Below are positions 15,313 through 51,679 of a DNA stretch of 64,000 nt, piece by piece. The position numbers were made by a program, and so were the translations under genes. Location: the IMG/VR virus record IMGVR_UViG_3300029240_000001; one strand, 5' to 3'. Under the pieces are notes generated by a model. That model saw nothing but the letters and a program-made list of their open reading frames with translations. It did not search any database and had not been told where the DNA came from. Each line of letters starts with the position of its first letter. The stretch's first letter is position 1. Origin of the DNA: a virus.

Positions 15313-16083
15313 ATGGCAAATTTTATAGATATGACTGGATGGAAAATGTGGGAACATGGAGTGCCAGATAGTAGATTGACAGTAATTGAAAGGACAAATG
15401 ATTATATAAGTCCTCAAGGAAGGCATCGCATAATGTGGAAGTGTGAATGCAACTGTCAAGAACATGGAGTAGTAATTACTTCTACAGATCAAATAAAGTC
15501 TGGACGCACGAAATCATGTGGATGCCTGCAAAGAGAATCTTTAAAATATGTACACGAAAATAATAAAAAGCGATGTAAGTATGATGTTACTTCTTTTAAC
15601 TATGGTGTTGGATGGACTATAAATACTAATCGTGAATTTTATTTTGATTTAGAAGATTATGACAAAATAAAAGATTATTGCTGGAGAGAAGAAATAGATC
15701 ATACTAACTATCATTTTTTAGGGACAAATATTAATCATAAACATACCATCATGTCGTGGTTAATTGTAGGAAAGTTTTATGATCATATAGACAGAAATCC
15801 TTTTAACAATAAAAAAGATAATTTACGGAAATCTAACTCATCTGAAAATGCAAGAAATAGAACCGTCCCTAGTAATAATACATCTGGAATTATAGGTGTA
15901 CATTGGAGCAAATATTACAATGCTTGGGTTGCACAAATTGGCTTTGAAGGAAGAAGAATATGGCTTGGAAAATTTACAGAGAAAGAAGAAGCTATTCGGA
16001 CACGTCTAAAAGCAGAATTAAAATATTTTGGAAACGAATTTGCACCGCAACGTCATTTGTTTAAAAAATATGGTATTGAATAA
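15313..16083 (+). mobile_element. Free-standing HNH homing endonuclease with AP2 DNA-binding domain and N-terminal CxCxC...SCGC zinc module
   Basis: HNH: DHIDRNPFNNKKDNL. AP2: SGIIGVHWSKYYNAWVAQIGFEGRRIWLGKF. N-terminus: WKCECNC...GRTKSCGC. Inserted between the helicase and polymerase genes. Confidence 0.8.
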
Positions 16084-16084: not shown

Positions 16085-16098
16085 CAATACAAAATTGT
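16085..16098 (+). promoter_or_regulatory. Recurrent motif copy (CAATACAAAATTGT)
   Basis: 13 of 14 positions match. Lies between the HNH stop and the dnaE RBS. Confidence 0.45.
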
Positions 16099-16118
16099 TA
16101 TGAAAGGAGGAGGATGTA

Positions 16119-19100
16119 ATGTTTATTAATTTACATGTCCACAGTGCGATTGGTTCTCTTCTGGATTCAATTCTTACAGTAGAACAAGCTGTAAAATATG
16201 CAGCAGATAATGGTCAAAGTCATATTGCTCTAACAGACCATGGGACAATGCATGGATTTGTTGAACAGGTTAAACTATGCAAGAAATATGGAGTAAAACC
16301 GATTGTTGGTTGTGAAATTTATGAAGTTGACAATTATCTTGAAAAGAATGATTCAAAAGAATATACTCAGCCAAGATATCATTTAGTTCTTCTCGCATCA
16401 AAGCAAGTAGGGCTTCAGAACCTATTTAAAATTGTTAGTGAAGCTGCAACAACAGGCATGTATAAAAAGCCACGTATATCTATTAATTGGATTAAAGAGC
16501 ACAATCTTGGCGAAGGGATTATTTGTTTAACTGCATGTCAAGTTGGCCGTCTTAGTAGATATCTTGAAAATGAAATGTATGATGAAGCAGAAGAATTTGT
16601 AAATCTTTTAAAAGACACATTTGATTATGTTGCATGTGAAATTCAATCACATAAAACTGAACAGCAATTAAAGTGCAATACATTAATTTATCAGTTTGCA
16701 AGACATATGAATATGCCATATGTTATTACTACTGATGCGCATATGTTAAGTGCAAATCAAATTGATACACATTCCATTTTTGTCTCTATTGGTGAAGGTC
16801 GAGAAACAGGAGAAACGTATGTTGGATGTCATTTGCAAAATGAGCAAGATGTTTTTCAGTATCTCGGAGATTGGATGCTTGAACGAGTAGTCCAACAAGG
16901 TATTGATGAGACAGTACATATTGCAAATATGATTGATGATGATATTGACTATGGTCTTGACCATGGGAATATTATGCCAACAATTAATGTTCCAGAAGAG
17001 TTTTCTTCTCATGAAGACTATCTTCATTATCTTGTCTTTGAAAAGTTTGATAATAAATTCGGATGGATGAACGAAGAAGATCAAAAGATAAGACGAGAAA
17101 GACTTGAAAAAGAATTACCTGTCATTAATGCGCTCGATTACACAGATTATTTTATTATGCTTCATATGATTGCAGAGGCGGCAGACGCAAGACAACTACC
17201 AAGAGGATATAGTCGCGGCTCTGGTGCAAATTGTTTATGTTTATTTATGCTTGGTGTTACTCAGATAGATTCAATACGTTGGGATTTGGATTTTTCACGT
17301 TTTGCAAATCTTGGAAGAAAAGGTAGCCTTGCAGACTTCGATTGGGATATTAGTAAACGTAGACGAAAAGAAATCATAGAGATCTCAGAGGAGCTTTTTG
17401 GAAAAGAAAATGTTGCGCCAATTGCTACTTTTAATACACTAGCTACAAAAGTGGCAATTCGTGATATTGGAAAAGTGCTTAATGAAAGACAAGATTCTCC
17501 ATACTTTGGACAAATTCCTTATAGCCTTCGTGATGAAGTCACTAAAATGATTCCTACTGTTAAGACACTAAGTGACCTAGGTGAAGAAGTAGAAAAGGAC
17601 GTATTACTTAAAGAACTTGTTGGCAAAGACGAGAAACTAAATGAAGTTTATAAAAAGTTCCCATTATGGTTTAAGTATGTAATGGAGCTAGAGGGACTTC
17701 CTAAGAGCAGAGGTCGTCACGCCGCAGGAACATTGATTACTCCACATCCTGTTATCAATTATTGTCCATTGTGCCTAGACAATGAGAAAAATCCTATGAT
17801 TCAATTAGAGATGCATGCAGCAATGGATGATCTCGGATTGGTTAAAATGGACTATCTAGGACTAGAAACACTAGATGTCATAGATGACGCATTAAAAATG
17901 GCGCATTTAACATGGGAAGATGTAGATATTAATCACCTCAACTTGGAAGAACAAAGAGTTTATGATGAAATCTATAAGAGTGGAAATACTGTAGGAGTAT
18001 TCCAATTTGAATCTGCTGAAGCAAAAAAGATGTGCATTGATGCACAAGCAGACAACATAGAAGACATTATTGCAATTAATGCAAGCAATCGTCCCGGAAC
18101 AAAAAACAGTTTTCCTGATTATTGCAAAAACAAATTATATCCAGATGAAACAGTAGTTATACATCCAGACTTAAAAACTCTATTTTCAAAGACACATTCT
18201 ATTCTTTTATATCAGGAAGACGCTCTGCATTTGCTTGCATATGCTGGATTCTCTGAGGAAGCACAAGACACTGGACGAAGAGCAATTGGAAAGAAGAAAA
18301 AAGATGTGATGGCGTCTTTGTATACTCAATTCCATGAAGGATTAATTAAAAAACAATGGACAGAACAACAGATTAAAGATATGTGGGCGTTACTTGCTAA
18401 ACAAGCAGAGTATAGCTTTAACCGTGGGCATGCGGTTGCTTATTCATTATTAGCATATCTTACATCTTGGCTAAAAACATTTTATCCAGTTGAATTTCTC
18501 ACAGCGGTTCTAACAGCGAAATCAGGCAATACGGCAAAATTAAGTGTAATCATTAATGAGTGTCATAGACTTAATATTAAAGTTCTTCCACCAAAAATTA
18601 ATGAATCAACACTTACATTTAAGGCTAAGCCTGAATCAAAAGAAATACTTTTTGGATTTGGAGCAGTAAAAGGCATTGGCGAATCAGTCATCACTAAAAT
18701 TATTGAGAATCAACCATATAGCAGCTTTAATGATTATATATCAAAAATTTCCGATAAGTCTGCTACAATTGCTTTGATAAAAGCGGGAGCCTTCCCAACT
18801 TCTAATAAAATGAAGTTAATGAAAAGATATGCGTCTTTATCATATGAGAGAAAAGAATATAAACCAGTTCAATCATATGGGACGAAAGCAAAACTTTTGA
18901 TTGAATGGGACATTAACGTAGATGATTATAAGGTTGGCAAAAAAGTAGATAAAGAGACTGTATTGCAATTGTATAATGAGAAGCGCAAAGAAAAGTTTGA
19001 TAAAGAGCAAGAGCAAAAATATAAAGCTTATATGGAAGACTTCAAACAAAAATATGCAAAAGATCCATTCCTATGGGAATATGAAAGTCTATCAATGTTT

Positions 19101-19442
19101 TTGACAGACAACCCACTACAAGAAGGAGTAGATTTAATTAATGCCAACTGGGATGATGCTCCAAATGGAGAAAAAACAGTTGTATTGTGTGTAATATCAG
19201 ATATTAAACGTAAGAAAGATAAAAACAATAATCAATTTGCATATTTAGACTTAATTACTTCTGACAGGATTATTGAAGCAACTATTTGGAGCAAACAGTT
19301 AAAAGAATATTTCGGCCTCATTGCAAAGGGCAAGTGCCTTGCGATCCTTGGAAGAAAAGAAGACGATCATTTGTTTGTTGAACGAGTAAAACCATATACA
19401 GTATGGCTAGAAAAAATTAAACGAACAAAATCAGTCTATTGA
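16119..19442 (+). CDS. dnaE: DNA polymerase III alpha subunit (DnaE-type, N-terminal PHP domain)
   Basis: 1107 aa. PHP motif (INLHVHSAIGSLLDS...LTDHGTMHG), polymerase core (GLVKMDYLGL, FQFES), and a C-terminal OB-like region. Confidence 0.9.
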   Translation: MFINLHVHSAIGSLLDSILTVEQAVKYAADNGQSHIALTDHGTMHGFVEQVKLCKKYGVKPIVGCEIYEVDNYLEKNDSKEYTQPRYHLVLLASKQVGLQNLFKIVSEAATTGMYKKPRISINWIKEHNLGEGIICLTACQVGRLSRYLENEMYDEAEEFVNLLKDTFDYVACEIQSHKTEQQLKCNTLIYQFARHMNMPYVITTDAHMLSANQIDTHSIFVSIGEGRETGETYVGCHLQNEQDVFQYLGDWMLERVVQQGIDETVHIANMIDDDIDYGLDHGNIMPTINVPEEFSSHEDYLHYLVFEKFDNKFGWMNEEDQKIRRERLEKELPVINALDYTDYFIMLHMIAEAADARQLPRGYSRGSGANCLCLFMLGVTQIDSIRWDLDFSRFANLGRKGSLADFDWDISKRRRKEIIEISEELFGKENVAPIATFNTLATKVAIRDIGKVLNERQDSPYFGQIPYSLRDEVTKMIPTVKTLSDLGEEVEKDVLLKELVGKDEKLNEVYKKFPLWFKYVMELEGLPKSRGRHAAGTLITPHPVINYCPLCLDNEKNPMIQLEMHAAMDDLGLVKMDYLGLETLDVIDDALKMAHLTWEDVDINHLNLEEQRVYDEIYKSGNTVGVFQFESAEAKKMCIDAQADNIEDIIAINASNRPGTKNSFPDYCKNKLYPDETVVIHPDLKTLFSKTHSILLYQEDALHLLAYAGFSEEAQDTGRRAIGKKKKDVMASLYTQFHEGLIKKQWTEQQIKDMWALLAKQAEYSFNRGHAVAYSLLAYLTSWLKTFYPVEFLTAVLTAKSGNTAKLSVIINECHRLNIKVLPPKINESTLTFKAKPESKEILFGFGAVKGIGESVITKIIENQPYSSFNDYISKISDKSATIALIKAGAFPTSNKMKLMKRYASLSYERKEYKPVQSYGTKAKLLIEWDINVDDYKVGKKVDKETVLQLYNEKRKEKFDKEQEQKYKAYMEDFKQKYAKDPFLWEYESLSMFLTDNPLQEGVDLINANWDDAPNGEKTVVLCVISDIKRKKDKNNNQFAYLDLITSDRIIEATIWSKQLKEYFGLIAKGKCLAILGRKEDDHLFVERVKPYTVWLEKIKRTKSVY

Positions 19443-37760: not shown

Positions 37761-37773
37761 TAATTTTGTGTTA
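37760..37773 (-). promoter_or_regulatory. Recurrent motif copy (TAACACAAAATTAT on the minus strand) overlapping the TMP stop codon
   Basis: Plus-strand ATAATTTTGTGTTA. Co-oriented with late transcription and immediately 5' of the hairpin. Confidence 0.4.
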
Positions 37774-40700
37774 TCTAACACGATTATAAAGCTTTTTATT
37801 GATATTTTTCATATAATTGTCCATCTGATCTTGTACCGCTTTAGCGATGTTTGGAATCGAACTATTATCCGCTCTCTCTACGTGAACAAGGCTACCAATC
37901 TCCATATTCAACTCAATATTATTATTAATAATATGAGGAGCACTAACAGTAGGCTTTGATTGCTCTAGAACACTAGATGGATCTAGTTTGCCCCATTCCA
38001 TAAGTCTTTCTGTTAGGTCTGCAGGAATAATTCCTGTTCCTTTCTTAATATAAGAAAGCCTACCTGCACCGTCTGGAACAAGCTGCAACTCTTCACCAAG
38101 CTCGTCAAGGAATGCGAACTGGTCTTTATCAATTGATTTAGCTCCACTACTGTAACCCTCTATGTCGCTCAGACGCACCCAGCCAGTATAGCCACCATTT
38201 CTACCAATGAGAACTTCCGAATCTGTTGCCTGATAAACTGTAAATGTAGAGCCCGGAACCCAAGACTGCATGCGTGTTCCATTACCACCATTTCTGGAGA
38301 AATTAGTTGCTGATTTCTTAACAGTTACAGACGAACCCTTAGTCGGGGCTGCTGGAGTGGATGGTTCAGTAGCTGGGGACTGCTGTGGAGTCGAAGGAGT
38401 TGGCGGAGTGTACTTCGCACTCTCAGTCGAATTCTTCTTGTTATTTGTTGCCTTAATTATGCTATCTGCGGTCTTATCAGCTTCAACTTGTAAATCTACA
38501 AGCTCTTGTTTTAATGCGCGTAATTGCTCAGTAAATGCGCTCGCAGAAGTGTCTAATTGCTCCTGATAAGTGCCAATGGCATCTACGCCTTCTAGCCAAG
38601 GTTTAGTTACAGAATCAGAAAGAGTGATTCCATACTTATCTGCGATTTCAGATAGATTTTGTGCTAACGAATCTGTATTAGCAGCGATAACAGCATAGCT
38701 ATCTTGAATGACTTGGTTCTCATTCTTCAGCGATTCATCAAGTGCATCCATTTCGTCCTGCTTGTTGTCTTGATAATTCTCAAGAGACTTGTCTAGCGCC
38801 TCTTGCTGCTTTTCAACACTATGGTCATAATACAGGTCGTTTAACTCGTCTTGCGCTTGCTTCAGTTCGGCTTCTAATTTTTTCTTCTGTGCAATCGCGG
38901 AGGCTGAATTGTCGCCAGAAATGACTGCAAGCCTCTTCTGAATGTCTGCAATATTCTTCTGCTGCTCTGCGACCTGCTTGGAAAAATCATTTGCTTCTTT
39001 CTGAAGGCTAAGTTCATCTTTCTTTTTGTCTATAAGCTCTGAATAGGCGTCTATCTCTTTTTGCAGTCCGTCCTTGACGGCTTGAACACGAGTTTTATTC
39101 AAATCAATAATAGACTTCTTCGCGGCCTCTTGCGCCTCAATTGCATCCCATTGATTCTCTTTAAGCTCGGCAAGTTTCTCGTTATACTCGTCCGTACTAT
39201 ACAGTCCAGCGGCATAATCCTTCTCAAGACGTGCAATCGCTTCGCCGTATTGTTCAACCTTAAAGTTTGCGGCTTCTAACTGCTGTGCAAGTAGACCAAG
39301 AGCAGTAACGCCATCTTTCGTCCAATTGCCGAATTCGTCTACTACTTTCTCCTCATCAGAAACCAAGTTATACAAATGAGAAAGCTCAGAATCAACATTA
39401 TCAATCTTATCAATTAACTTATCAAGATTATCCCAGTAAAGGTCGTTAATACTATTCTGGAAGCCTTCGATGTCTTTCTTGCATGAAAGGATTGAATCAT
39501 CAACATCATAAATGGCGTTAACCATTTCATACCAATCGTCAGTTCCAACTCTAACGTCTCCAGAAGCAACAGCCTGATCTAGGACACTTTGTAGCGAAGC
39601 ACGTTTGTTATTTAGGTCTTCAATCTGCTTCTGAGAGTCTTTCATTAATTCCTTATAGAAATTCTCAGAAAGTCTTTCGCCTGCTTCGTCGAGAAGATCC
39701 ATCTCGGCCTGAATGAGGTTTGAGTGCTGTTCGACTAAACCAACAATATTCTCAAAGTCATCCGCAATATCCTTTAGCTGTTCAAGACGTTTAGCAGAGA
39801 TTTCAGCGATAGATTCTAGATAGCTATTCTCTGCATCTTCTGCTTTTGTAGACCATGTACGATATTCTTCAATGGCATCAGCAATTTCGCCTTCGCTTTC
39901 CCCGATAAAGTCTTTAATTGCGATAGCGCCGTTCTTTGCCATTTCTTGATACTCGGCGGGAACTTTAGACAGTAGCTCCGTTGCCTTCTGGTTGTAAAGC
40001 TCTGCTGCAGCAAAATATGTAGATGCTTTCTGTTTTTCTGCTCCGACTAAGTCATCATATAAGCTGTTCTTATCTCCAATTTGAGAAGTATCGTCAAGGA
40101 AATTCTCAATTCTATTGGTCATATGAGTAATTGCCTTCTCGATTTCTTCAAGCTTATATTCAATAAAGTCAATGGTTTGCTCTGCATCATCGGCTGCGTC
40201 AGATACATCACTTGCCGCATCAGATAGGTCACTAGCAGCATCACTTAAGTCCCAACCCATTTGAGACCAGTCTTTGTCACTGCCATCTCCCCACGCAGCA
40301 TTCGCTCCAGTGCCAGTTTTCTTTGTATAAGTACCATAATTCCAGTGAGCATTGCCTTTAGCAAACGACAAGCCGCCAGTGTATGTCCCACGAGACGTGT
40401 ACCCATTCTTTAATAACTCTTCTGTCTGCTTGTGGTTATAGATTATTGCACCCTTCGGCAAATCAAGCATTTCCGTGCCATGTTCTCCAACAGTATAATA
40501 AACGCCCTTGTTTGCGTCTACTACTAGTTCACGACCAAGCTCGCCTACAATGGCATTGTGCTCATTTGCTTTTAATCCGGGCTTCTTGCCTGAATGCGCA
40601 TTGCCTTTTGCCAAAGCATTTCCAAGCGCACTAGACGCGCCGTCAGGATTATAGCCACTTCCGCTTTTTGCATCTTCACGACCTTGTGTAAATTTGCTCT

Positions 40701-43700
40701 TTAGGTTGTTCCAAAAATTGCTCGCTTGTGTACTAATCCAAGAAGCAGCCGATTCCCAAAGACCATTAATGGCACTAGGAACAGTTTCTGTGAAGAATGT
40801 AGAAATGCCAGTTTTAATATTTTCTAAAGTAGTAGGTACTGTTTCTGTAAGAAATGTCCCGACTCCTTCCCAAAATTCATTCCATTTTGTCGGAAGCGTT
40901 GCTGTAAAGAATTCTAAAATCTTTTCTCCCGCTGTTACCAATGCTGGGCCAATCACTTCATCAACATAAGTGCCGACACTCTCCCAGAAAGAATGCCATT
41001 TTTCAGGAACTGTCTCGGTAAAGAATCCATACACGCTATCCCACGCCGCGCTTAAGGCTGGCGCGATTGTGCCATCAATATATTCACCAACGCTAGTCCA
41101 AAATTCACTCCATTTTGTAGGAATTGTTGTCGTGAAGAACTCAACAACTTTATCTTTCAAAGCAATAGCGTCTTCTTTTAAATTGTTTAATTCTTCGCCA
41201 ACGCCATCCCAAAATTCATCCCATTTTTCTGGAATAGTTTCTGTAAAGAATGTAACTACCGCATCTTTAAGATCGCTTGCCCATTGTTTTACTTTGTCGA
41301 AATCTTCACTAACATTATCCCAAAACTCTCCCCATTTCTCAGGGACAGTCTCTGTAAAGAATTCTTCAACTTTCGCAGATATATATCCAACTGCGTAAGG
41401 GATGTCGCCAAGGAATTCCCCAACACTTCCCCAAAACTCGTTCCATTTTTCCGGAATCGTTTCGGTAAAGAATGTATTAACGCCTTCTTCTACATTAGCA
41501 GCCCAATCTTTTACTCCGTCAAGACATTCGCCAACACCGTTCCAGAACTCATCCCATTTTTGAGGCAATGTGTCTGTGAAAAATGTATTTATGTCTTCCC
41601 ATAGTCCTTGCGCCCATTCTTCTGCACCAGATAATTTGTCTCCAATACCGCTCCACAAATTGTCCCATACAGTTGGCAATGTTTCTGTAAAGAAAGTAGA
41701 TATGCCACTCCAAATATTGTTGGCGAATTGCTGTACCTCAGCAACCACCTCGTCCACTAATGCGTTCCAACCTGCAATTACTTGATCCGGGCTTTGTGCT
41801 TCAAATCCCGTAACGTTGGAAGTAGAAGTTGTGCTTGCACTTTTTTCAGTACTCGTCGAAGTTGTACCAGAGCTTGTTTTTGTTGCATCAGTTGTTTTCG
41901 TATCTTGCTTCTTGTTTTTGTCTGGAGATTGAATGGCATCCAAAATGTTGTCAAGAACTTCTTTGACCTGAGTTATTCCATCAGTTATTGGGTCAACTTC
42001 TTGATTAGTTAACACCTCAAGTTGTTGTTCGTCATTTTTTAAATCAACATATTCTTGAATCTTCTGTTGCTGATCTTCGTCTAATTCAAGCGTTGCCGGA
42101 ATTTTCCAAACTCCATCCTTATCTTGCTCTAGCTTTGGAACTACTTCAGTGACTAGAGTGGCATTTTCTTCTTTCCACTGATCAATTTTAGATTGGACAT
42201 CAGTTAATACAACCTGAAAATCCATTACGGTTGGCTGTTCTAGGCCATATTTAATTTTTAAAGCTTCTGCTAACTGCTCTTTTGCTTTTTCGAGCTCATC
42301 CGTCTTTATTTGAATCTCTTCATCCGAAGCTCCAGCATCTTTTAACTCTTGTAATTCTCTTGTAAGTGTTGATACATTTTCTTTTGCAGTATCAACGGTA
42401 TTGTTTGCATCGATCCAAGCTTTTGTATTGTCAACAATTGCCTGCTGTGCATTATTCAACGAATCTGTAGCGCCATCAATTTCTTGCTGAATCGCATTAT
42501 ATTCTTCTGCATTTTCGCCAAGTGGATCTTTACCAGCCCTGAAAAACTCTTCTTGCTTCGCAAGTGCCTTGTCCAAAGAGTCGGTAGTATCTCTAAGTTT
42601 TTTGTCAAGTTCTGTCATAGTTAGGTCAGAAACGATATCTCCCCAACTTGCATCATATTTTGACAGCTCTGTCAACATTGCAATAGTTGCGGCCTTTGTT
42701 AATCCCATTGCATTTGCAAGGTCGTCAACGCTCTTTATACTACTATCAAGAGTAAATGTGCCGTCCGCATTTTCAATAAAAGCACTAGCTTCTTTCGCGT
42801 CGGCAATAAATGCTTCTATGTTCTTTAAGCCTATTGAAAAATTTCCATCATCATCAATAGTGAAATAGTCTGCAAACTTTGAGTTTTCAAAATAATCATC
42901 AATGGCGTCAAGACGTTCTTCAAAAGTTTTACAGTTTGCAATAACGCTCGGAGGAACTAATGCCTCACATGCCGCCTTAAATGCTTCCGTCCCAACTTTG
43001 CCACTCAACAATCCATCGCTAATGGTCTCAAGCATTTCGACCATTGAGTCGCCATACGCCACTTCCGAATCTCTGTTTTTAGCATCCTCGAATTCATCAT
43101 ACGCATTGGTAACATCTGATAATTTCAACTCTAAAATTGAATATTCTTTAACTGCATTCTTGAGTGCTTGTATCTGACTACGCAACGCGCTAATATTATC
43201 ATAAGTTGCTTTTGTAACATATCCATACGCTTTGTAATCCGCATACATTGCCTTAACAGCCTGTTGTAGTTGTTTTACAACTTTTGTATACTGCGACTGA
43301 CTTTGTGCTTTCGCCGCACTTACTGTTGCCTTTTGTTCTTTTTTCTTCTGTGCAATTAATGCTCTTAATAGACGTGTATTCTTAACGACCTTGCCATTCG
43401 TAGTATCAATTGCGTCACCGAAGCTCTCTTCGCCAACAGTTACATCTCCAAGATACTCTTGGAGTGCAGTATAATAATCGTCAGAAATCGCTTGCCCGTC
43501 AAATGTTATGTCATTAACTGTCTGTAACACTGACGCATACGAATCATAAGCAGAAGTAAGGCTTGCTATGTCGCTAACAGCCACAGAAGTGGCTTCACTA
43601 GTCTGTTGCATAGCACCGCTAATGTTCAAGAAATATCTTGCAACATCTTCTGCACTAATTCCAAGAGAGTCTAATTGTACTTTAAGCTGTGGATTTTCAG

Positions 43701-45465
43701 CAATTAAGCTCTCAACCTCTCCAGTGACTCCTTCAATAGCAGATTCGTAATCTCCGAATTTATCAACGTCAACATTGATCTCTCCAGATTCAATTTTCGC
43801 GTTAAATGCTTCTTGGAATGCTTGTCCTGCCTCAGAACCACGCTCGCCGAATAAGCGGTCAAGAGCAGACTCTTTTGCTCCAGCAGAACCAAACATGATT
43901 TCTGCTCGATCATTGTAATTTTGCATCGAGCTAAGAAGACCATTTACTGCCTTTTGTGCCTCTGTTAAATTGTCACCATCAAACCATTCCAAGTCGCTGA
44001 CGCCATATTCTTCTTCTTTGCCTTTCATAAACTCGTCCCAATTGGACTGTGCGTCGGCATAATCTTCTTGCGCAGACTCTAAATTCTTTTCTAGTTTTTG
44101 GAACTTTTTGCTATTGGTGTCCATACCAGAGTCTAAGGAATCCTGTACTTCTGCTTCCGCTTTGTCTAGTTTATCTTTGGCGTTTTTTACTTTACCTAAT
44201 TCGTCTTCAAAATTGTTTGTATCTTTAAGATTAAGCGTGCCAGTAGGTCGCGTCTTGAAATCTTGATCGGTATCCAATGCGCCCTTTACAGCTTCTGCTT
44301 GCTTGTTTTTAGCACGTTCTTCTCTTGCTTCTTCCAAGCGAATTTGACGTTCAAGTTCGGCATTTTGCTCTTTTAATTTGTCAAGCTCTTCTTGCTCCGT
44401 AAGAGTTAATGTGCCTTTAGATTCGAGTTCTTCTATACGGCTCTTCGTAGTCTCTAGTTCGGAATTTAAGGAATCGAGATTAGATCGGATGTTTTTTAAA
44501 TTCTCAGTTTCTTCTTCTAATTTTTTAATGAAATTTTTATGAGTGGGGCCCCATGCCACATAAGCAGCAATAAGAGCGCCTACAGCTACTGTAACTGCTG
44601 CAATTATAAGCCCAACAGGGCCTAATGCTACATAAATTTTTGCTATTGCACTTAGAACTGCTGTTTCTAGGCTCTTAACTGCCATTTTTAACACGCCAGT
44701 TGCTCCGGCAGCAGCATATTCTGTCGCAACTGCTTCGATTATCCTTGCAATAAATTTGGCAAATGCAGTGTCTGCAAGACCTAAAGTCTTAATTAAATTA
44801 TTAATTGAATCGCCAATATTAGAAATGGAGAATCCCCTAATGGCCGTGACAATTTTCCCAATACGTTCTGCCAACGACATGCCTTCCGTGGCTTTTAAAA
44901 ATGCTTTTAGTGGGGCAACTACGCCCAACAATATAAGGATAGTGCTTTTTAGTACGCCAACTTTATCTACAACGCTTACCAAACCAGTTCCAACATCTAC
45001 AAGGAATTTAGTAACATCAGCATTTATAAAATTCATCCACATGGTTTGAACAGCATTCGTAAACTGATCAATCTTTCCTTGAATACTATCCAAGTATTTT
45101 TCATTTTCGGCCATTGCACTGCCAGCAGAATCTGCAGATGTTTGCATCGCATCTTCTACTAAGTCAAAATTCTTAATAACGGCGGATAAAACATTTGCTT
45201 GTCTTTTCCCGCCTAGCAATTCTAGTGCGGCTGCTCGATTTACGTCCGTCATGTCGTCCCATACTTGAGACATTTCACGTAAAATTTCTGTAGTGTTCTT
45301 GAATGTATTCTCATCGAGCATATTGTCAACTTTACCGCCTGTTAAAGCTAACAATTTTTTCTGCAGTTCTGAGACGCTATTGGCCATGCCATCAACGTCC
45401 TCACCTGCATCTTCTAATTCTACCTTGGCTCCGCGAATACGAAGCGATAAGGTTTTCATTGCTGT
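37771..45465 (-). CDS. Tail tape-measure protein, exon 3 (2564 codons + stop)
   Basis: Begins TAMKTLSLRIRGAK... (continuation of the conserved TMP core), followed by TM helices, long coiled coils, FFTETxP..W..FW repeats and a C-terminal SH3-like segment. The track ORF starts at the internal Met (45459). Confidence 0.8.
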   Translation of the reverse strand, partial: TAMKTLSLRIRGAKVELEDAGEDVDGMANSVSELQKKLLALTGGKVDNMLDENTFKNTTEILREMSQVWDDMTDVNRAAALELLGGKRQANVLSAVIKNFDLVEDAMQTSADSAGSAMAENEKYLDSIQGKIDQFTNAVQTMWMNFINADVTKFLVDVGTGLVSVVDKVGVLKSTILILLGVVAPLKAFLKATEGMSLAERIGKIVTAIRGFSISNIGDSINNLIKTLGLADTAFAKFIARIIEAVATEYAAAGATGVLKMAVKSLETAVLSAIAKIYVALGPVGLIIAAVTVAVGALIAAYVAWGPTHKNFIKKLEEETENLKNIRSNLDSLNSELETTKSRIEELESKGTLTLTEQEELDKLKEQNAELERQIRLEEAREERAKNKQAEAVKGALDTDQDFKTRPTGTLNLKDTNNFEDELGKVKNAKDKLDKAEAEVQDSLDSGMDTNSKKFQKLEKNLESAQEDYADAQSNWDEFMKGKEEEYGVSDLEWFDGDNLTEAQKAVNGLLSSMQNYNDRAEIMFGSAGAKESALDRLFGERGSEAGQAFQEAFNAKIESGEINVDVDKFGDYESAIEGVTGEVESLIAENPQLKVQLDSLGISAEDVARYFLNISGAMQQTSEATSVAVSDIASLTSAYDSYASVLQTVNDITFDGQAISDDYYTALQEYLGDVTVGEESFGDAIDTTNGKVVKNTRLLRALIAQKKKEQKATVSAAKAQSQSQYTKVVKQLQQAVKAMYADYKAYGYVTKATYDNISALRSQIQALKNAVKEYSILELKLSDVTNAYDEFEDAKNRDSEVAYGDSMVEMLETISDGLLSGKVGTEAFKAACEALVPPSVIANCKTFEERLDAIDDYFENSKFADYFTIDDDGNFSIGLKNIEAFIADAKEASAFIENADGTFTLDSSIKSVDDLANAMGLTKAATIAMLTELSKYDASWGDIVSDLTMTELDKKLRDTTDSLDKALAKQEEFFRAGKDPLGENAEEYNAIQQEIDGATDSLNNAQQAIVDNTKAWIDANNTVDTAKENVSTLTRELQELKDAGASDEEIQIKTDELEKAKEQLAEALKIKYGLEQPTVMDFQVVLTDVQSKIDQWKEENATLVTEVVPKLEQDKDGVWKIPATLELDEDQQQKIQEYVDLKNDEQQLEVLTNQEVDPITDGITQVKEVLDNILDAIQSPDKNKKQDTKTTDATKTSSGTTSTSTEKSASTTSTSNVTGFEAQSPDQVIAGWNALVDEVVAEVQQFANNIWSGISTFFTETLPTVWDNLWSGIGDKLSGAEEWAQGLWEDINTFFTDTLPQKWDEFWNGVGECLDGVKDWAANVEEGVNTFFTETIPEKWNEFWGSVGEFLGDIPYAVGYISAKVEEFFTETVPEKWGEFWDNVSEDFDKVKQWASDLKDAVVTFFTETIPEKWDEFWDGVGEELNNLKEDAIALKDKVVEFFTTTIPTKWSEFWTSVGEYIDGTIAPALSAAWDSVYGFFTETVPEKWHSFWESVGTYVDEVIGPALVTAGEKILEFFTATLPTKWNEFWEGVGTFLTETVPTTLENIKTGISTFFTETVPSAINGLWESAASWISTQASNFWNNLKSKFTQGREDAKSGSGYNPDGASSALGNALAKGNAHSGKKPGLKANEHNAIVGELGRELVVDANKGVYYTVGEHGTEMLDLPKGAIIYNHKQTEELLKNGYTSRGTYTGGLSFAKGNAHWNYGTYTKKTGTGANAAWGDGSDKDWSQMGWDLSDAASDLSDAASDVSDAADDAEQTIDFIEYKLEEIEKAITHMTNRIENFLDDTSQIGDKNSLYDDLVGAEKQKASTYFAAAELYNQKATELLSKVPAEYQEMAKNGAIAIKDFIGESEGEIADAIEEYRTWSTKAEDAENSYLESIAEISAKRLEQLKDIADDFENIVGLVEQHSNLIQAEMDLLDEAGERLSENFYKELMKDSQKQIEDLNNKRASLQSVLDQAVASGDVRVGTDDWYEMVNAIYDVDDSILSCKKDIEGFQNSINDLYWDNLDKLIDKIDNVDSELSHLYNLVSDEEKVVDEFGNWTKDGVTALGLLAQQLEAANFKVEQYGEAIARLEKDYAAGLYSTDEYNEKLAELKENQWDAIEAQEAAKKSIIDLNKTRVQAVKDGLQKEIDAYSELIDKKKDELSLQKEANDFSKQVAEQQKNIADIQKRLAVISGDNSASAIAQKKKLEAELKQAQDELNDLYYDHSVEKQQEALDKSLENYQDNKQDEMDALDESLKNENQVIQDSYAVIAANTDSLAQNLSEIADKYGITLSDSVTKPWLEGVDAIGTYQEQLDTSASAFTEQLRALKQELVDLQVEADKTADSIIKATNNKKNSTESAKYTPPTPSTPQQSPATEPSTPAAPTKGSSVTVKKSATNFSRNGGNGTRMQSWVPGSTFTVYQATDSEVLIGRNGGYTGWVRLSDIEGYSSGAKSIDKDQFAFLDELGEELQLVPDGAGRLSYIKKGTGIIPADLTERLMEWGKLDPSSVLEQSKPTVSAPHIINNNIELNMEIGSLVHVERADNSSIPNIAKAVQDQMDNYMKNINKKLYNRVR
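40740..41720 (-). repeat. Nine tandem 37-38-aa FFTETxPxKWxEFWxxVG repeats in the tape-measure protein
   Basis: Read from the translation. The same periodicity produces the spurious plus-strand ORFs with reiterated ...TVSVKN... (40694-41785). Confidence 0.75.
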
Positions 45466-45778
45466 CGATCTATTACTTTCCCACGAAAACCAAATGGTAC
45501 TGACCGATTATGTAATCGGCGGCAAGGTCTTTCGGCCTTGCTCTACGATTTTATTTTTAGATTATTGTCGTAGTCTAGACTGGATCTTCACCCTCATTCC
45601 CGTCATTATACGGAGTAGGGGAACAGCGGAACCTGTTATGTTACCATAAAAGGTCTTACAGTCGTTACGGATACTTTGCACACTGCAAAGTCTTTCCTCG
45701 GTCTTGACCATCTCTGGCTTTTAACCGATATAGCTGTTTTCTTTCAATATATTACTATATTGTTAGGCTATTATGTTA
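45466..45778 (-). mobile_element. ORF-less group I-like intron (313 nt) in the tape-measure gene
   Basis: Follows an exonic U. P1 candidate UAGGU|...GCCUA. Starts UAACAUAAUAG (in-frame stop) and ends ...AUAGAUCG. Has an R-like AGACUACGA element and several hairpins. Shares blocks and co-varying helices with the upstream intron. Confidence 0.75.
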
Positions 45779-46100
45779 ACCTACAGATTCTGGATTTTGC
45801 ACAACGCTATTGGCGGCTGTAATTAACCCAATAGACTCATCAAGTGTATTGCCAGCCTCTGCCATAGCACTAGCAGAACGCAATAGCGCTTGTCCAATAC
45901 CTGATGAACTGATTGCAAAGTGGTTTCCCACCTCGTTGAATTTATCTACGATTCCCATAGCATTAGACGCTTCAATACCAAATCCGTGCATTGTAGAAAT
46001 GATACTGTCAGAAGCCTCACCAATATCGGCTAGGTCATCACCAACGTTATAATAAACGGAAGCGGCCTTTGCCAAGTCAGATGCTTGCTCAATGTTATAT
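45779..46100 (-). CDS. Tail tape-measure protein, exon 2 (322 nt)
   Basis: Encodes (L)YNIEQASDLAKAASVYYNVGDDLADIGE...ITAANSVVQNPESVG, the middle of the TMP core domain. The track shows only the part from an internal TTG (45776-46075). Confidence 0.8.
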
Positions 46101-47292
46101 CCTCACTTTGTTACTATTTCCACTAAAGGAAATGGGTAGGTCATTTCTGCCTACCTCTGCAATTTCATTATTAGATTATAGTTGCAGGTCAGATCATCTC
46201 TTCATCTTAATAAGATGTCCACCATACGCATAACCGTTACCGATTACGCTGTGATCGTTACAGGACTTAAAACATTTAATATAATATTCTCAACTTCATT
46301 TGGCCTAGATGTATATGGGATATATAAAATGCCAATATTCTTGCTATGGCAATATTCTTTTTTAATTTTGTCTCTGTATACTCTATTCTCATAAGCCTCT
46401 TCGCCACCAAAAAAATCAATTGGCTCAAAATGCTGTTTTCCTTGATATTCTATTACCATATGATAATCTGGCAAATAAAAATCAAATGGAAGTGGCAAAA
46501 TATTTCTGCAGTCATCCCATGTAAATTCTCGCTCAAATTTGATATTATATTTTTTTAGAATGGTTTCTACTAAAATTTCCCCCGAGCTAGATGACTGACA
46601 CCCACAGCTAATAGTGCATCCCCCAACTAAATCTGAAACAGACGCCAATACTTCATTTCCACAATCACATTCACATCTCCATAGTCGTTTATAATTACCC
46701 GGACTACCTTTCCGTTTTACATATTCTTTTGCCACCAACATGCCAAATCTTTGATTTGTTAAATTATAAGCTATAGAATCATAATATTGCTTAACTAAAC
46801 ATCCACAACTAGAAACTCTTCCTCTAATAAGATCTCCGGAAGAACATTTTATATTTCCTCCACACTCACATTCGCAATACCACATAATACAACCATTAGA
46901 TGCTCTTTTGTCCAATTTGTATTTAACAATAAGTTTGCCAAATTGTTTCCCAGCCAAATCTTTTTCTTTTCCTTTATTTAATGAACCACTCGCCGTTTTT
47001 GTGCTACCGTTTCTTAATGCATCTAATCGAACTACTACTACAACACCATTTTCATTTATACATTCGCAATATGTGTGTTTTCCTCCATTATATCCATACA
47101 ACATTTTTGTTACCACTAGTTCTCCATATTGTTCTCCAACAATATTTATTCGTCTTGGCATTTTATCACCTCCTATTCATATAATTTATATTAAATGTTT
47201 TACATTACCCACGGGATTGTCCATCTCTGGAGTTTCCCCGTTTTAAGATGGATGTTTACCTATATGTCGCCATACAGGGGGCCTATTAATTA
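46101..47292 (-). mobile_element. Group I-like intron (1192 nt) carrying a homing-endonuclease ORF, in the tape-measure gene
   Basis: Follows the exonic U of ...AGGCU. P1 candidate GGCU|...GGCC. Starts UAAUUAAUAG and ends ...AAAGUGAGG. The non-ORF parts (131 + 143 nt) align with the 313-nt intron. Confidence 0.75.
46244..47161 (-). CDS. Intron-encoded homing endonuclease: three CxCxC...(S)CGC zinc modules + C-terminal PD-(D/E)XK (Vsr/DUF559-like) nuclease
   Basis: Own SD (AGGAGGTG). Repeats GxxFGxLxV...WxCECxCG...SCGC. C-terminus LPFDFYLPDYHMVIEYQGKQHF...KDKIKKEYC resembles the D...E-x-K/Q restriction-endonuclease-like core. Confidence 0.7.
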   Translation of the reverse strand: MPRRINIVGEQYGELVVTKMLYGYNGGKHTYCECINENGVVVVVRLDALRNGSTKTASGSLNKGKEKDLAGKQFGKLIVKYKLDKRASNGCIMWYCECECGGNIKCSSGDLIRGRVSSCGCLVKQYYDSIAYNLTNQRFGMLVAKEYVKRKGSPGNYKRLWRCECDCGNEVLASVSDLVGGCTISCGCQSSSSGEILVETILKKYNIKFEREFTWDDCRNILPLPFDFYLPDYHMVIEYQGKQHFEPIDFFGGEEAYENRVYRDKIKKEYCHSKNIGILYIPYTSRPNEVENIILNVLSPVTITA

Positions 47293-50200
47293 AGCCTTGC
47301 GAAATCTGCTGTAGCATTAGTAAAATCTTTAACGGTAGAGCCGATCTGCCCAGCAGTTTTAGACGCATCTTGTAAGAATCTCTTATAAGTTTCATCAGTT
47401 TCATCGGTAACTTTCTTTAATTCTGTTAACGCTGCGTCAATTTCTCTTACATATGTAATACCTTGCTTAATTTGAGCAACAGTTTTATACACCATATTTG
47501 CGCCAGTAAAGTATGTAAGAATTTCACCAGACTTTTTCTTAACATTGCTAAAGAAAGAGCCAAGCGTACTACTTGCTTTGCCCATATTCTTAGCGGAAGC
47601 ATTAATAGCATTTCCCGCTTGATTAAACGATGCAGTTAGTTTTTCTACTTCGCCATTGCCATTCTTTATTGTAAAAGTAACCTTGGAATAGTTGTCAGCG
47701 AATTGAATAGATTTTTTATCTAGCCCATCAAAAGAATTAGCAAATGCTTCTAATTCACTTCTTCTGCTTGCTTCGTCGCCAATATCAAAGCCATCAGAGA
47801 CCGAACGAGTGATATTACCAACTTTGTTTTTCATCTCTTCGGACTTCTTAATGATATTTTCAATTGCTTTGCCATATTTATTAAATGACTCAACTGCACT
47901 ATCAAACTCTGCGGCCTTTTGCTTACCCAAATCTGAAGTGATGTCTATGTTTGCAAGCTCTTTTTGCAGTGTAATTATTCTTTGATATGCTTGCTCGTAT
48001 TGCTGTAATTGAGTAGTAAGCCCGGAGGCATTGGCATAGCCTTTGCTATTAACGCTATTAATTAACCCAGTATGCTTTGTTTCGACTTGTCCGACAACAT
48101 CTGCCCCATATGAGGTATTGCTTTGCTTTGCTGAGTCCTTCTTTACCTTTGCGTACTGTTCAAAATCGCTCATGAGCTGCTTTGTCGCAGCACTCAACCT
48201 TTGCATATCATCTTCTGACACTTTACCAAAGGCTTCTTCAGACTTTGTTAACTCTTGAATCTCCTTTGACAGAGCTTCATATCTACTCTTTAACTGTCCA
48301 AGATCACTATTTTTATCTACGAAGACTTCCGTATCAATTTTCCTAAAAGCAGAAGATAGCTTTTGATTTGCATCTATTAATGTCTTATAATTATCTAATT
48401 CTTTGTAACCGCCGCCAGAGTTTTCAGAACTGCCAGTTGAAGACGTTTTCTTCTTCGACTCTTTCTTTGCAACTGTTCCATTTCCAAGTGATTCAGCAGT
48501 TTTATCCGCGCTATCTTTTACATTTTGGTTCGCATTAGCAAAATCATTTTTAGCTTGAGTGGCGGATGCAAAAGCTTCACTAGCCTCTCTAGCCTTTTCT
48601 ATTTCTTTTTCTATAGCAACCGCAGAAGCTTCCGCACTTTCCTTAACTCTTGCATTAGCTTCAACAAATTGATTTTTTTGTTCCGTTGCAGCCGCAAATG
48701 ATTCCTGTACACCACTATCACTAGTTACTTCTGGTGCGATTGCTGCAGGTTCTCCTGTGCTTTGACCACTAGCAACCTCCTCAGTTGCTGCCTTCGAAAT
48801 CTTCGACACATCGCTCTGATTTTGTTTTTCTTTTTCTTTTGTAATTTGCTGTTGTATTGCCAATTGCTGTTTTGTTTCTTCATTTTGCTGCTTCTCTACT
48901 GTTAGCTCTTGCTCTGCAGCCTCTGTCCCTTTTTGCTTCGTTTCTGTCGCACTGCCTAATTCTGCTTTTGCTTCAGCAAGCTTGGTTTTTAATTCATCAA
49001 TTACAGAAGACAAATTTTCAATTTTTGCTCTATATTCATCTACGACATCATTTGAAGTCATATTATCGACTTCGCTCATCGGGACAGAATTATCTAGAGC
49101 ATTTTGGATGTCGTAATAACCATTCTTCCACGAATCTAAAGCACCTTCCATACGAAGGATTTCTTCTTCCAATTCTTGTACTTGTTTTTGTGCCGCGTCA
49201 AGCTCGGAAGCGTCAACAGGATTTGTCGGAATAGCATTTAGTTTTTCTTTAAGAGCGGCAATTTCTTGCATAAGCTCTTTTTCTTTTTCAAGCTGCGCGG
49301 TTTGATTGTCTGTTTGATTAGACTGAGTTGAAGGTTGCCCAGACTGAATCTGATTAAGCTTTTCTTGCGCGGTAGTCTCTTCGTTGATAGCCTCAGTAGT
49401 TTTTTGATGAGACTCTGCTGCTTGCGCCTCGATTTCCTTAATTCTAGCTACGCTTTGATTCCAAGCATTAGTAGAATCAATTTCTCCACTCTCGAACGAG
49501 CTAAAAATATCTTTAAACTTGTCCCAATCGGCGGTGTGCGATGGATTCAATGTTGCCAATAAACTTTTTAATTTTTCAATTGGTGCAACAGAATTTTCTC
49601 CATTCTTTTGTATTTCGGCCAAATAAGATGACAGCTCTGGTAGCTGTTCCATTGTATATGTCTTAACAGTCGAAGCCAACCCATTGTCTGTAAACGCCTT
49701 ATCTAATGCTTGATTAACTTTTTCGTTAAACGCAGCAATTAACTGTTCATACGAAATACCAGCTTGTGCCGCTTTTTCTTCTGCTCCTTTTATTAATCCA
49801 ACTTCCCCGTCATTATATTCCATGAGAGGAAATTCTTTTGTAGCTGCTTTTAAATTTTGAGAGTAAGATTCTCCAATTTTGATGGCCATTTCTTTAGAAA
49901 TGCCAGTAAAATCAATTGTTTTAACAACACCATCTGCAATGATACCATTGATTTTTGTACCTTGGTCATAAAACAACTTGGTAAATGAATTAATATCCGA
50001 CGGCGTAAATGCACTCATTCCATCTGGGTGATTGTGCAAAGACATTACGATATTTTCTTTTAGATTATTGACAAGTTGTGATACTATCGCATCTGTATCT
50101 ACCTGAAAATCCTTCCCGGAAAAAGAGCTTACTACTTTGTCCGCTCCAAAAAGCGTCATAGACTCTTTTGCGTCGCCGCTACCTTTTGAATAACCAACCT

Positions 50201-51662
50201 CTTGCCTAGACGCAAGATTTAATAATTCTTGCAGCTCTCCAGCTACACCGCCAACTTCCTTTGCACTTTTTTGCGCGGCCATAGGAATTTCAACATTAAG
50301 TAATTCACAGATTTTAGAAAGTGCCTCGTCTCCGGTAATATCTCCAAAGTCTAAATCCTCAAATATTTGGTCAATGGAAGCTCCAGCTTTTTTTGATGCC
50401 TGAGAAATTTCTTTAATCTCATCGACCAGTGCGATTAATTTATCAGCGTTTTGATTGTCTTCATCTACATCTGCGCTTGACGACAACGAAACATATTCCT
50501 TAACTCTTTTATTTAACTCGTCATATAAAGAAATCTTTTTTTCTTCCGAAGCAATCTCTTCATTTTCTACAAAAGTATTTGAATTACCAATATCTTTAAG
50601 ATTGTTTATTTCAGAATTGATATCTGCGATTTTTTGTTGATACTCGCTCTTGATTTTGTCAAGCATAGCGCTATGACGTTTATAAACATATTCTAGGTCG
50701 TCGGCATACATATTGTTTATATTAGTGCCGATCCATGTCATTCCCGGTGATAATATCCCATTATTACGCGCATTTATTCCATTATTTATTGTATTCTTTA
50801 ATTTTGTTGCAATCTCTAGATATTGCAATAAAGTATTTTTATATGATTCATCATCAGTCTTAATTGGGGAAATTTCATCTAATGTAGCCTTTAATTCTCT
50901 TGCTTGGCTCGCTAAAGATTTTAATTCATCATCTGCGGTTGCCTTTTTGAGCCCAGTTACTTTTAATTTACTTTTGTTCGGAAACAATAAATTTAAAGTG
51001 TTTTGATACTCTGTCTTTTTATCGTTAAGATCATCAATTTGCTGTTGTATCTCGGTGGAAATTTTGTTGCCAGTTTCTTTTATGTTATTAACAGCTTCAT
51101 CTCCAGCAGACTTAATACTATCTCCAACTTTAGACAGATCAATCTCGCCAAATGCGATATTTAATTTACCATTTAGCTCGCTGGCATATTGGATTAATGC
51201 ATCAAACTGTTCTTCAACACTTTTAGTGTTAAAAAGGTCTAAGTCAATTTGTTTATCAATGCCAACGTTCTTGAGAATGGTATTTAACTGCTCTGCGTAG
51301 CTCGATAATTCTTTTGTCGCACCTTTGTCCTTTAAATTAATACCGCTAAAACCTGTAAAAACATTTTTGGACAACTCTGAAATCTGAGACATCTGTTCAA
51401 CCATTTTGTCAAAAGACTTCATATATCCGCTATTGAGCTTATCTCCAAGACCTGCTTTGACGGAATCCAAATCTTTCCTAAGTGCCTTAACAGCATCGTC
51501 CATAGCGACAAACTGCTTAATAAAGTTATTAAGATTGCCACGCTTGCCAATGTTTGCTAAAACTCCATCTACCTGCTCTGCTTGAGTCTTACACGCGACA
51601 AGACTGCTCATAAGATCATCAATACTATATTTAATTTTCGAAGTATAACTCGCTTCTGCCAA
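47293..51662 (-). CDS. Tail tape-measure protein, exon 1 (1456 codons + 2 nt)
   Basis: TTG at 51662, 8 nt after AGGAGG (the track uses GTG at 51671). Long coiled coils, an internal LHNHPDGMSAFTPSD motif, and ends ...ELKKVTDETDETYKRFLQDASKTAGQIGSTVKDFTNATADFARL, the start of the TMP core domain. Confidence 0.75.
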
Positions 51663-51679
51663 AAGAATCACCTCCTACT

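Follow-up and report, generated by a model that had tools for sequence, protein, structure and literature searches.

How does a protein of 305 amino acids that looks like a nuclease come to lie between the parts of a giant phage tape-measure gene, and what does it do there? The question is raised by an open reading frame (ORF) on the minus strand, at positions 46244-47161 (305 codons and a stop), of the virus record IMGVR_UViG_3300029240_000001 from IMG/VR, of which a stretch of 64,000 nucleotides was analysed (hereafter the window). An earlier note on this DNA had described an intron-encoded endonuclease at this place, and the ORF is indeed found there, in the ORF list as well as through its homologs. 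We consider it likely that the protein is a site-specific homing endonuclease which mobilises its own group I intron. Established directly were the ORF with its repeats, the boundaries of the intron, presence and absence among near-identical phages, covariation in the intron RNA, the match of the fold and the conservation of the active-site residues.

Intron boundaries, alleles and the group I fold

Two very long minus-strand ORFs and a third one of 99 amino acids read together as one tape-measure protein, with PhageMin_Tail on the middle piece. Exon 1 (47293..51671) ends ...TADFAR-L, its leucine codon being split as CT|A; exon 2 (45779..46103; GYNIEQASDLAKAA...NPESVG) carries the Pfam match PhageMin_Tail, and exon 3 (TAMKTLSLRIRG...) occupies 37771..45465. 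Between exons 1 and 2 lies group I intron 1 (46104..47292), which is 1189 nucleotides long and holds the endonuclease ORF in its P6 loop, and between exons 2 and 3 the ORF-less intron 2 of 313 nucleotides (45466..45778). All of these features, and the parts of intron and endonuclease described below, are on the minus strand. The splice sites of intron 1 were read from the sequence beforehand, the 5' site after ...GCAAGGCU (47293) and the 3' site after ...AAAGUG (46104), as was the second insertion at 45778-45466; the predicted ligated RNA junctions are GCAAGGCU|AGGAUAUAAC for intron 1 and GUAGGU|ACAGCAAUG for intron 2.

IMG/VR was searched with the predicted spliced protein, and related phage contigs of ~150 kb were returned. 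Eight of these contigs (L008-L015) have a tape-measure gene without interruption at either insertion site. BLASTN against the intron-less allele L008 joined window position 47293 to 46103 and position 45779 to 45465, exact to the base, and the reading frame is restored exactly upon removal of the insertion. The exons are thus delimited by the ORFs together with these intron-less alleles, and intron 2 by its absence in L016 and its presence alone in L018. All four combinations of the introns were seen, namely neither (L008 type), intron 2 only (L018 type), intron 1 only (L016 and L027) and both (L028 and the window), the presence or absence of intron 2 being independent of that of intron 1. Intron 1 is missing from L018-L020 and L024, whose flanks are 97.7-99.5% identical. 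The word intron-encoded in the earlier note is therefore justified, since the intron-less alleles fix the junction 47293|46103 and covariation supports the group I fold (see below).

The conserved sequence around the insertion, the presumed target, is ...GCAAGGCT^(C/A)GGATATAAC..., within the coding sequence ...TADFAR-L|GYNIEQ...; the intron-less junction reads TTTGCAAGGCT^CGGATATAACATTGAGC in the L008 type and GCAAGGTT^AGGATATAAC in the L018 type. One exon flank (TACTAATGCTACAGCAGATTTCGCAAGGCT) is common to all intron-bearing alleles, and most intron-less ones carry a different synonymous version. This shared flank is consistent with co-conversion. The ORF is intact in all full-length intron-bearing relatives, and where it differs, it does so in 4-6 synonymous versus 1-4 non-synonymous codons.

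Rfam at its gathering threshold returned nothing in the whole window, and comparative covariation was used instead. The 131 nucleotides 5' and the 140 nucleotides 3' of the ORF are non-coding and fold into P1-P9.2. These flanks were aligned with those of the homologous introns L005, L007, L036, L038 and L026, which encode endonucleases of 34-56% identity, and the structure for the covariation test was built by hand. For the whole ORF-deleted intron, the 68 pairs in P1-P9.2 were 96.3% paired and 30 of them had changed on both sides, whereas only 35-48% were paired in the control in which the partners were slid by 1-3 columns; none of 500 shuffles attained the observed values. The 5' half, analysed in eight sequences by addition of L039 and the 5' part of intron 2, gave 21 pairs that were 97.4% paired, 12 of them changed on both sides. 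In the whole-intron set, compensatory changes fell on five of six pairs in P3 (the long-range helix by which a group I core is defined), three of five in P4, one of four in P5 (two of four in the eight-sequence set), one of five in P7 and two of six in P8. The U.G pair at the splice site is invariant in all six homologous introns, and a terminal G precedes the exon in all introns that are aligned up to the 3' end, L036 being incomplete there. Minimum free energy folding of the ORF-deleted introns recovered P1, P2, P4 and P5 and not the pseudoknotted core. Taken together, the covariation supports assignment of the flanks as a putative group I ribozyme.

The 5' ribozyme half (47162..47296) comprises P1 (47296-47292 with 47284-47280, including the U.G at the splice site), P2 (47278-47272 with 47265-47259), the 5' strand of P3 (47252-47247), P4 (47240-47236 with 47216-47212), P5 (47231-47228 with 47223-47220) and the 5' strand of P6 (47210-47208). 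The 3' half (46104..46265) runs from the 3' strand of P6 (46265-46263) to P9, P9.1 and P9.2 and the terminal G at 46104; it includes P7 (5' strand 46256-46252, 3' strand 46196-46192), P7.1 (46249-46241 with 46236-46228), the 3' strand of P3 (46223-46218) and P8 (46217-46212 with 46208-46203). The strands of P7 resemble what we take to be the R and S consensus elements, and the helix order P7, P7.1, P3', P8, P7' resembles what is presumably that of subgroup IA. The ORF reaches into this core: its last eight codons (SPVTITA-stop, 46244-46270) overlap P6', J6/7, the 5' strand of P7 and P7.1, and the stop codon lies inside the P7.1 stem. Because these eight codons double as ribozyme elements, the SPVTITA tail, which is modelled as disordered, is near-invariant even at synonymous sites in homologs of ~40% identity.

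These results also bear on a reading without any intron, in which a free-standing nuclease gene has split the tape-measure gene and its pieces are translated one by one (a 'fractured gene'). Rfam calls no group I intron here, gene callers annotate separate ORFs, and it was in fractured genes that homing genes of the Vsr-like type were discovered (PMC2677866), all of which would suit such a reading. Nevertheless we regard it as highly improbable: the frame is restored exactly without the insertion, the exon 2 fragment would need a mechanical TTG start, and the flanks fold into P1-P9.2 with 30 compensatory pairs, among them those of the long-range P3, and with the U.G at the splice site. The covariation essentially excludes a fractured gene.

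Some further observations concern the other insertions in this gene. Intron 2 begins after a U able to pair with a G in a P1-like helix, and its last base is G. It has P2-, P4- and P5-like helices and two 3' hairpins in common with intron 1, with compensatory differences; a search of Rfam (E ≤ 10) gave no match for it. A third insertion, of 477 nucleotides, is found inside exon 2 of L021, L022, L023, L025 and L030 (L021 2680-3156, corresponding to about window 45921-45924). It is partly similar to intron 2 (48 nucleotides at 87.5%) and would be a third intron site in the tape-measure gene. The spliced tape-measure protein, with the start codon of exon 1 assumed, would reach ~4,130 amino acids (4379 + 325 + 7695 nucleotides including the stop), which is unusually long.

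The putative endonuclease: repeats, nuclease domain and proposed mode of action

Residues 1-190 of the protein are three repeats of ~62 amino acids each, which had been recognised beforehand as three zinc units with a degenerate first copy, and comparison between the units by BLASTP bears this out. Unit 1 (residues 1-64; 46970..47161) matches unit 2 with E = 8e-5; it retains GxxYGxLxV and CEC (C32/C34) and has lost the third cysteine and the SCGC end. In more distant homologs, for example P0045 and P0082, the first unit is intact. Unit 2 (residues 65-128; 46778..46969), which reads GKQFGKLIV...WYCECECG...SCGC, and unit 3 (residues 129-190; 46592..46777) were both found by motif scan and match each other with E = 2e-12 and 38% identity. 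In the alignment of homologs, the unit 3 cysteines C165, C167, C186 and C188 show no variation among 51 sequences. A six-frame regular-expression scan of the whole window found three intact CxCxC...CxC copies, of which units 2 and 3 are two and the third belongs to the ORF at 15313-16083, and no further one. The structure model predicts the units with confidence as three strands and a helix, and the intact units 2 and 3 probably bind zinc. The N-terminus gave no helix-turn-helix (HTH) or NUMOD match and consists of the three Cys-rich repeats only; NCBIfam had no match for the 305-residue protein or for the product of 15313-16083.

The remainder of the protein, residues 191-305 (46247..46591), is the Vsr-like (EDxHD-type) nuclease domain. 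It contains the string LPFDFYLPDYHMVIEYQGKQHF...YRDKIKKEY, in which the earlier note had seen a Vsr/DUF559-type nuclease core and which carries the family-invariant D227, E238, G241, H244, D264 and K267. A Foldseek search of the PDB with the full-length model was dominated by matches from the repeat region, of which those to ribosomal eS4, Tudor and polo-box were of low probability and were discounted as meaningless; the credible ones were 1vsr and chains of the Toxoplasma mitoribosome, and no others. For this reason the C-terminal domain was remodelled alone. The AlphaFold model of residues 189-305 has a predicted local distance difference test (pLDDT) score of 89.5 and a predicted template modelling (pTM) score of 0.81, and its top three Foldseek matches in the PDB were 1cw0_A, 1vsr and 3r3p_A, all with probability 1.00 and template modelling (TM) scores of 0.54-0.72. 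The first of these is DNA-bound Vsr (TM 0.72 normalised to the query), and 3r3p is the catalytic domain of the homing endonuclease I-Bth0305I (21% identity, TM 0.64 on the target). The next matches in the list are Toxoplasma mitoribosome chains and PvuRts1I/AbaSI. Profile searches point in the same direction. The protein itself matches Pfam DUF5889 with 14.1 bits, the cut-off being 27.1, and among 51 homologs DUF5889 was matched by 38, DUF2726 by 30, PvuRts1I-like_N by 11 and DUF559 by five. All of these are weak (best E = 2e-5) and all lie within the Vsr-like fold group. Vsr, DUF559, DUF2726 and I-Bth0305I share one PD-(D/E)XK group in a published classification (PMC3424549), and, as judged from the model, the nuclease belongs to this Vsr/DUF559/DUF2726 branch of the superfamily.

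The residues E195, D227, F228, E238, G241, H244, D264 and K267 are invariant in 67 homologs with a mean column identity of 27%, and E195, D227, E238, H244 and D264 are also invariant in a set of 31. In I-Bth0305I, the residues E170, D196, N208, H213 and D222 were defined experimentally (PMC3239194). With the sequence of that enzyme taken from phage 0305phi8-36 and the alignment read by hand, they correspond to E195, D227, Q240, H244 and D264, and the Asp-to-His spacing is 17 in both proteins. Moreover, E206 of I-Bth0305I aligns with E238. Vsr-like homing enzymes have an invariant Glu at the position of Vsr Phe62 (PMC2677866), and from the alignment we take E238 to be this conserved acidic residue. 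The canonical D...(D/E)-x-K is not present: the sequence reads D227...E238-Y-Q240, with no Lys, and the invariant Lys is K267 in the next helix. The active site is therefore the histidine-bearing Vsr/EDxHD variant without the canonical (D/E)xK lysine. EDxHD membership was assigned because of fold and motif, not because of sequence statistics.

The PD-(D/E)XK assignment of the earlier note thus holds for the fold, for which Foldseek (Vsr and I-Bth0305I) and the weak Pfam matches agree, and fails for the canonical lysine. Its remark that such homing endonucleases are a minority class is right as to their rarity, but the type is not uncharted, the biochemistry and structure of I-Bth0305I having been described in 2011 (PMC3239194) and phage intron ORFs with related nuclease domains, such as Tuc2009 orf38, having been annotated for a long time. 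LAGLIDADG, GIY-YIG and HNH assignments were rejected for the 305-residue protein, as the best fold matches are Vsr and I-Bth0305I, and the PHROG labels 'HNH endonuclease' (phrog_559, phrog_374) reflect family naming and not the fold of the C-terminal domain.

With these parts at hand, homing could proceed as follows. After co-infection, the enzyme would be made from its own Shine-Dalgarno sequence inside the intron (AGGAGG at 47174-47169, seven bases 5' of the endonuclease ATG). The N-terminal CxCxC-x18-CxC array would bind the conserved tape-measure sequence of intron-less genomes, and the Vsr-like domain would cut close to the insertion site with the Mg2+/His chemistry that Vsr and I-Bth0305I use: D227 and E238 would bind metal, H244 would act as the general base, and D264, E195 and K267 would assist. 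With the intron-bearing genome as template, recombinational repair would then transfer the intron, together with adjoining exon sequence, to the cleaved allele. Splicing would remove the intron from the mRNA, so that the tape-measure protein would still be made at low cost to the phage. Zinc binding, DNA binding by the repeats, cleavage and splicing are what we infer here.

Several results weigh against homing of this kind. As regards the nuclease, searches of the PDB by phmmer and hmmsearch with the protein, the full-length profile and the C-terminal profile found neither 3r3p nor Vsr at E ≤ 10, the matches being at chance level throughout (the best was the DUF559 protein 3hrl, E = 1). Alignment to I-Bth0305I by hhalign gave E = 8e-4 with a probability of 24% and misplaced the His, and the Foldseek E-values for the nuclease model are only ~2e-3. 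Position 240 is Q in the window (IEYQG) and D in most relatives (IEYDG), although I-Bth0305I has Asn at the equivalent position and is still active. As regards the ribozyme, Rfam model RF00028 matches intron 1 with 14.5 bits against a cut-off of 50 (E = 1.5), over P1-P6 only; P7 has just one compensatory change, and its G-binding pair was not explicitly located. As regards the target, no pseudo-palindrome was seen by eye around the insertion site, unlike in I-Bth0305I, and the intron-less alleles closest to the window, L018-L020 and L024, have at -2 a silent T in place of the C of intron-bearing exons (CTA to TTA, Leu; window 47294). These alleles also have a silent G-to-A at +14 (window 46090); they could be cleavage-resistant, products of intron loss or naive targets.

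An alternative is that the endonuclease is decaying or domesticated and no longer cleaves, being kept for the overlap of its last eight codons with the ribozyme core or as a maturase. Deletion would be costly since the 3' end of the ORF overlaps essential helices, unit 1 is already degenerate, and position 240 is Q instead of D in the window clade. Such a history appears unlikely to us, as 67 diverse homologs conserve all the remaining catalytic residues as well as the two intact zinc units, close copies differ mostly at synonymous sites, and the intron is polymorphic among near-identical phages, as expected of an active element. Furthermore, the RNA constrains merely ~8 of the 305 codons.

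The mode of cutting raises a further alternative, an active nickase or competition weapon that cuts related phage genomes broadly (marker exclusion) and does not make one double-strand break at the insertion site. Vsr, the closest structural match, nicks, and inspection by eye shows no palindromic target. Compared with L008, the window is 81.5% identical in exon 2 and 95.8% in exon 1, a mosaic typical of nuclease-driven exchange (PMC10448857). On the other side, I-Bth0305I, the sole characterised homing relative, is a dimer that makes a double-strand break beside the insertion site (PMC3239194), and the exact presence and absence at one site fits classical homing. We hold a nickase or weapon of this kind to be improbable and retain a site-specific homing endonuclease as the preferred reading.

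The zinc unit in other genes and other phages

The third intact zinc unit of the window lies in a free-standing homing endonuclease gene of the HNH-AP2 type on the plus strand (15313..16083; 256 amino acids), with the Cys core of its single N-terminal unit at 15442-15525. That this unit is common to both proteins, as had been proposed, was confirmed by BLASTP against unit 2 (E = 3e-7, 44% identity over 36 amino acids), and PHROG 374 matches both proteins through the zinc-unit region. In Pfam, the HNH-AP2 protein matches AP2 (E = 7e-4) and HNH_3 (E = 2e-3), both below the cut-offs, and its PHROG matches 374, 99 and 4578, all 'HNH endonuclease', have E = 1e-32 to 9e-27. Many close homologs carry precomputed PF13392 and/or PF00847.

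The gene sits between a helicase gene (14145-15287) and a DNA polymerase III alpha-like gene (16119-19442), and the gap between them was compared among the related loci L040-L058. In L046, L047 and L050, the helicase and the polymerase abut with ~40 nucleotides between them and no HNH-AP2 gene, their polymerases being 98-99% identical; the HNH-AP2 gene is therefore a free-standing presence/absence insertion. In other relatives, the gap corresponding to 15288-16118 holds a LAGLIDADG gene with a small Cys-rich ORF (L053) or a GIY-YIG gene (L049). In L044, it encodes a protein of 309 amino acids whose first 75 residues are 56% identical to the N-terminus of the HNH-AP2 protein. Another zinc unit follows, and the place of HNH_3-AP2 is taken by a domain that PHROGs identify as Endo VII-like (phrog_1035, E = 1e-20), although Pfam has no match in this C-terminus. 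Among the local observations, this one hints most directly that the zinc unit, and not the catalytic domain, may go with the insertion site. The helicase-polymerase gap is a hot spot of homing endonucleases. The polymerase 3' of the gap falls to 29-69% identity where the occupant of the gap differs, which suggests nuclease-bounded exchange of the polymerase gene.

Beyond this genome, a phmmer search with units 2-3 against 1.84 billion cluster representatives found 31,960 clusters at E ≤ 1e-3 and 9,554 at E ≤ 1e-10, the clusters being defined at 50% identity. Nearly all of the 147 best matches examined have 2-11 units, and some consist almost entirely of units. The core of the unit reads W-x-C-x-C-D-C-G-N-x3-V-x4-L-x2-G-x-T-x-S-C-G-C, 710 of 769 units have a spacer of 18 residues between CxCxC and CxC, and the units recur with a period of 57-69 amino acids. 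Pfam and NCBIfam have no model for it and gave only chance Cys-rich matches, a profile of the unit found no match in the PDB, and literature on the CxCxC motif with endonucleases yielded nothing relevant. Pfam partners among 106 array proteins are HNH, HNH_5, HNH_3, AP2, T5orf172, MUG113, DUF2726, DUF5889, MTES_1575 and HTH_3, and we take T5orf172 and MUG113 to be members of the GIY-YIG clan. Going by these domain assignments and that of the L044 protein, the predicted partner nucleases of the unit include Vsr-like, HNH, Endo VII-like and GIY-YIG-clan enzymes. The shuffling of a shared module between unrelated catalytic domains, which the earlier note had suggested for one genome, thus extends far beyond it, with ~32,000 clusters and several catalytic partners.

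A side observation is that NCBIfam NF035954 (CA_C0660 family putative sactipeptide bacteriocin) weakly matches the zinc unit in P0250, P0247 and P0246, with E down to 4e-9, below the cut-off; this small-peptide family may represent single copies of the unit.

A more far-reaching idea is that the zinc unit is an undescribed modular DNA-reading repeat and that arrays of 1-11 units set the target of a homing endonuclease independently of its catalytic domain, with one sub-site per unit. We offer this as a speculation, and a rather doubtful one. If it were true, the arrays would be a natural 'polydactyl' system with a logic like that of C2H2 zinc-finger arrays or transcription activator-like effector (TALE) repeats.

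Known relatives and biological meaning

The closest characterised system is I-Bth0305I, the prototype of the EDxHD homing endonucleases, which is likewise encoded by a phage group I intron (in recA of Bacillus phage 0305phi8-36) and likewise joins an N-terminal DNA-binding region to a C-terminal Vsr-like nuclease (PMC3239194, PMC2677866). The two nucleases match in fold and have the conserved E...D...E.x...H...D in the same order. They differ in that I-Bth0305I has two NUMOD/HTH motifs and no zinc, whereas the window protein has three CxCxC...CxC units. By profile the window nuclease is nearer to DUF2726/DUF5889/DUF559, and it has ~11 extra residues between the His and the last Asp as well as the invariant K267. 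In the same phage 0305phi8-36, gp9 and gp10 (L035 942-2225) are adjacent Cys-rich paralogs annotated with 'may contain zinc fingers', and one of the two bears the name HNH endonuclease; they repeat a C...C..H motif, unlike the CxCxC unit. Vsr of E. coli (1CW0, 1VSR), the best structural match, has its active-site Asp, His and Asp laid out alike. In contrast, it is a cellular T:G-mismatch repair nickase with an internal structural zinc and intercalating Trp residues, without repeat array or mobile-element context, and it has Phe62 where the window family has the invariant Glu.

Lactococcus phage Tuc2009 orf38 and, among others, ORFs of Bacillus phage Bobb and of Staphylococcus Sepunavirus phages belong to the same nuclease subfamily (LPFDF...IEFDGAQHF...RDEIKNKY). 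Such ORFs bear annotations like 'group I intron protein', 'intron encoded nuclease' or 'homing endonuclease', and phage structural genes contain them or adjoin them; Tuc2009 orf38 is the annotated ORF of a group I intron in the major head protein gene. The DNA-binding parts of the Tuc2009 and Bobb proteins have zinc ribbons of the CGH...CPxC type and C-terminal HTH repeats, and the Staphylococcus protein is without Cys repeats. We know of no biochemical characterisation of any of them, and a literature look-up found none. I-Ssp6803I, the canonical PD-(D/E)XK homing endonuclease, is also encoded by a group I intron and also belongs to the restriction-endonuclease-like superfamily. It differs by its classical PD-(D/E)XK motif, its small tetrameric form without a separate DNA-binding domain and its target in a tRNA gene, and it was not among the Foldseek fold matches of the C-terminal model.

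NUMODs and the zinc finger of I-TevI represent the same concept, small DNA-binding modules that are recombined with various homing nucleases; the zinc unit differs from them as a beta-beta-beta-alpha module of ~60 amino acids with W-x-C-x-C-D-C-G-N...S-C-G-C, in arrays of up to 11. Tape-measure genes are known as frequent hosts of intronic homing genes, and there are documented sites at which related phages carry nucleases of different classes (PMC10448857). In comparison with the ICP1-type tape-measure introns, which carry HNH-3 genes (PMC10448857), the window has the Vsr-like enzyme in the intron and the HNH_3 and AP2 domains in the free-standing gene at 15313-16083.

The family is widespread. 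The 305-residue protein has at least 1,185 homologs, and every homolog that was looked up (34-56% identity) is flanked by pieces of a giant gene of the tape-measure type. In the index of the assembly collection the identical protein occurs in 149 blocks, for the most part in contigs of 50-200 kb, and it stands in nr as 'MAG TPA: restriction enzyme [Caudoviricetes sp.]'. The nuclease domain occurs in 660 GenBank phage records, and megablast of the locus itself against GenBank phages gave no match. The window has a G+C content of 36.5%, its polymerase is closest to that of Clostridium phage Amboise (46.5% identity), and the related contigs come from IMG/VR and human-associated assemblies; the source is probably an uncultivated phage of ~150 kb that infects gut Firmicutes. 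With the full-length model, BFVD returned proteins of the giant viruses Klosneuvirus, Marseillevirus, Orpheovirus and Barrevirus (E = 1e-11 to 1e-16), annotated as treble-clef zinc finger, zinc-ribbon or DUF2726. The model comparison indicates that the architecture of tandem zinc modules with a Vsr-like nuclease is not confined to phages.

Taken as a whole, the element is of a familiar kind, a phage tape-measure gene harbouring a mobile group I intron and its homing endonuclease, because many homologs exist, intron ORFs of the Tuc2009 type are known and tape-measure genes are known intron hosts. The new part is an EDxHD-type homing endonuclease with a different, unannotated DNA-binding array. 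For annotation, this means that a large family usually labelled 'HNH endonuclease' or 'restriction enzyme' is Vsr-like (EDxHD-type). Near-identical phages with neither, either or both introns are a natural experiment for homing, co-conversion and resistance alleles. The zinc repeat is the least charted part, being among the most abundant nuclease-associated modules seen here and having neither a domain model nor a structure. If the unit binds DNA in a modular manner, it would account for the retargeting of four catalytic types of phage homing nuclease and might provide a compact scaffold for engineered nucleases.

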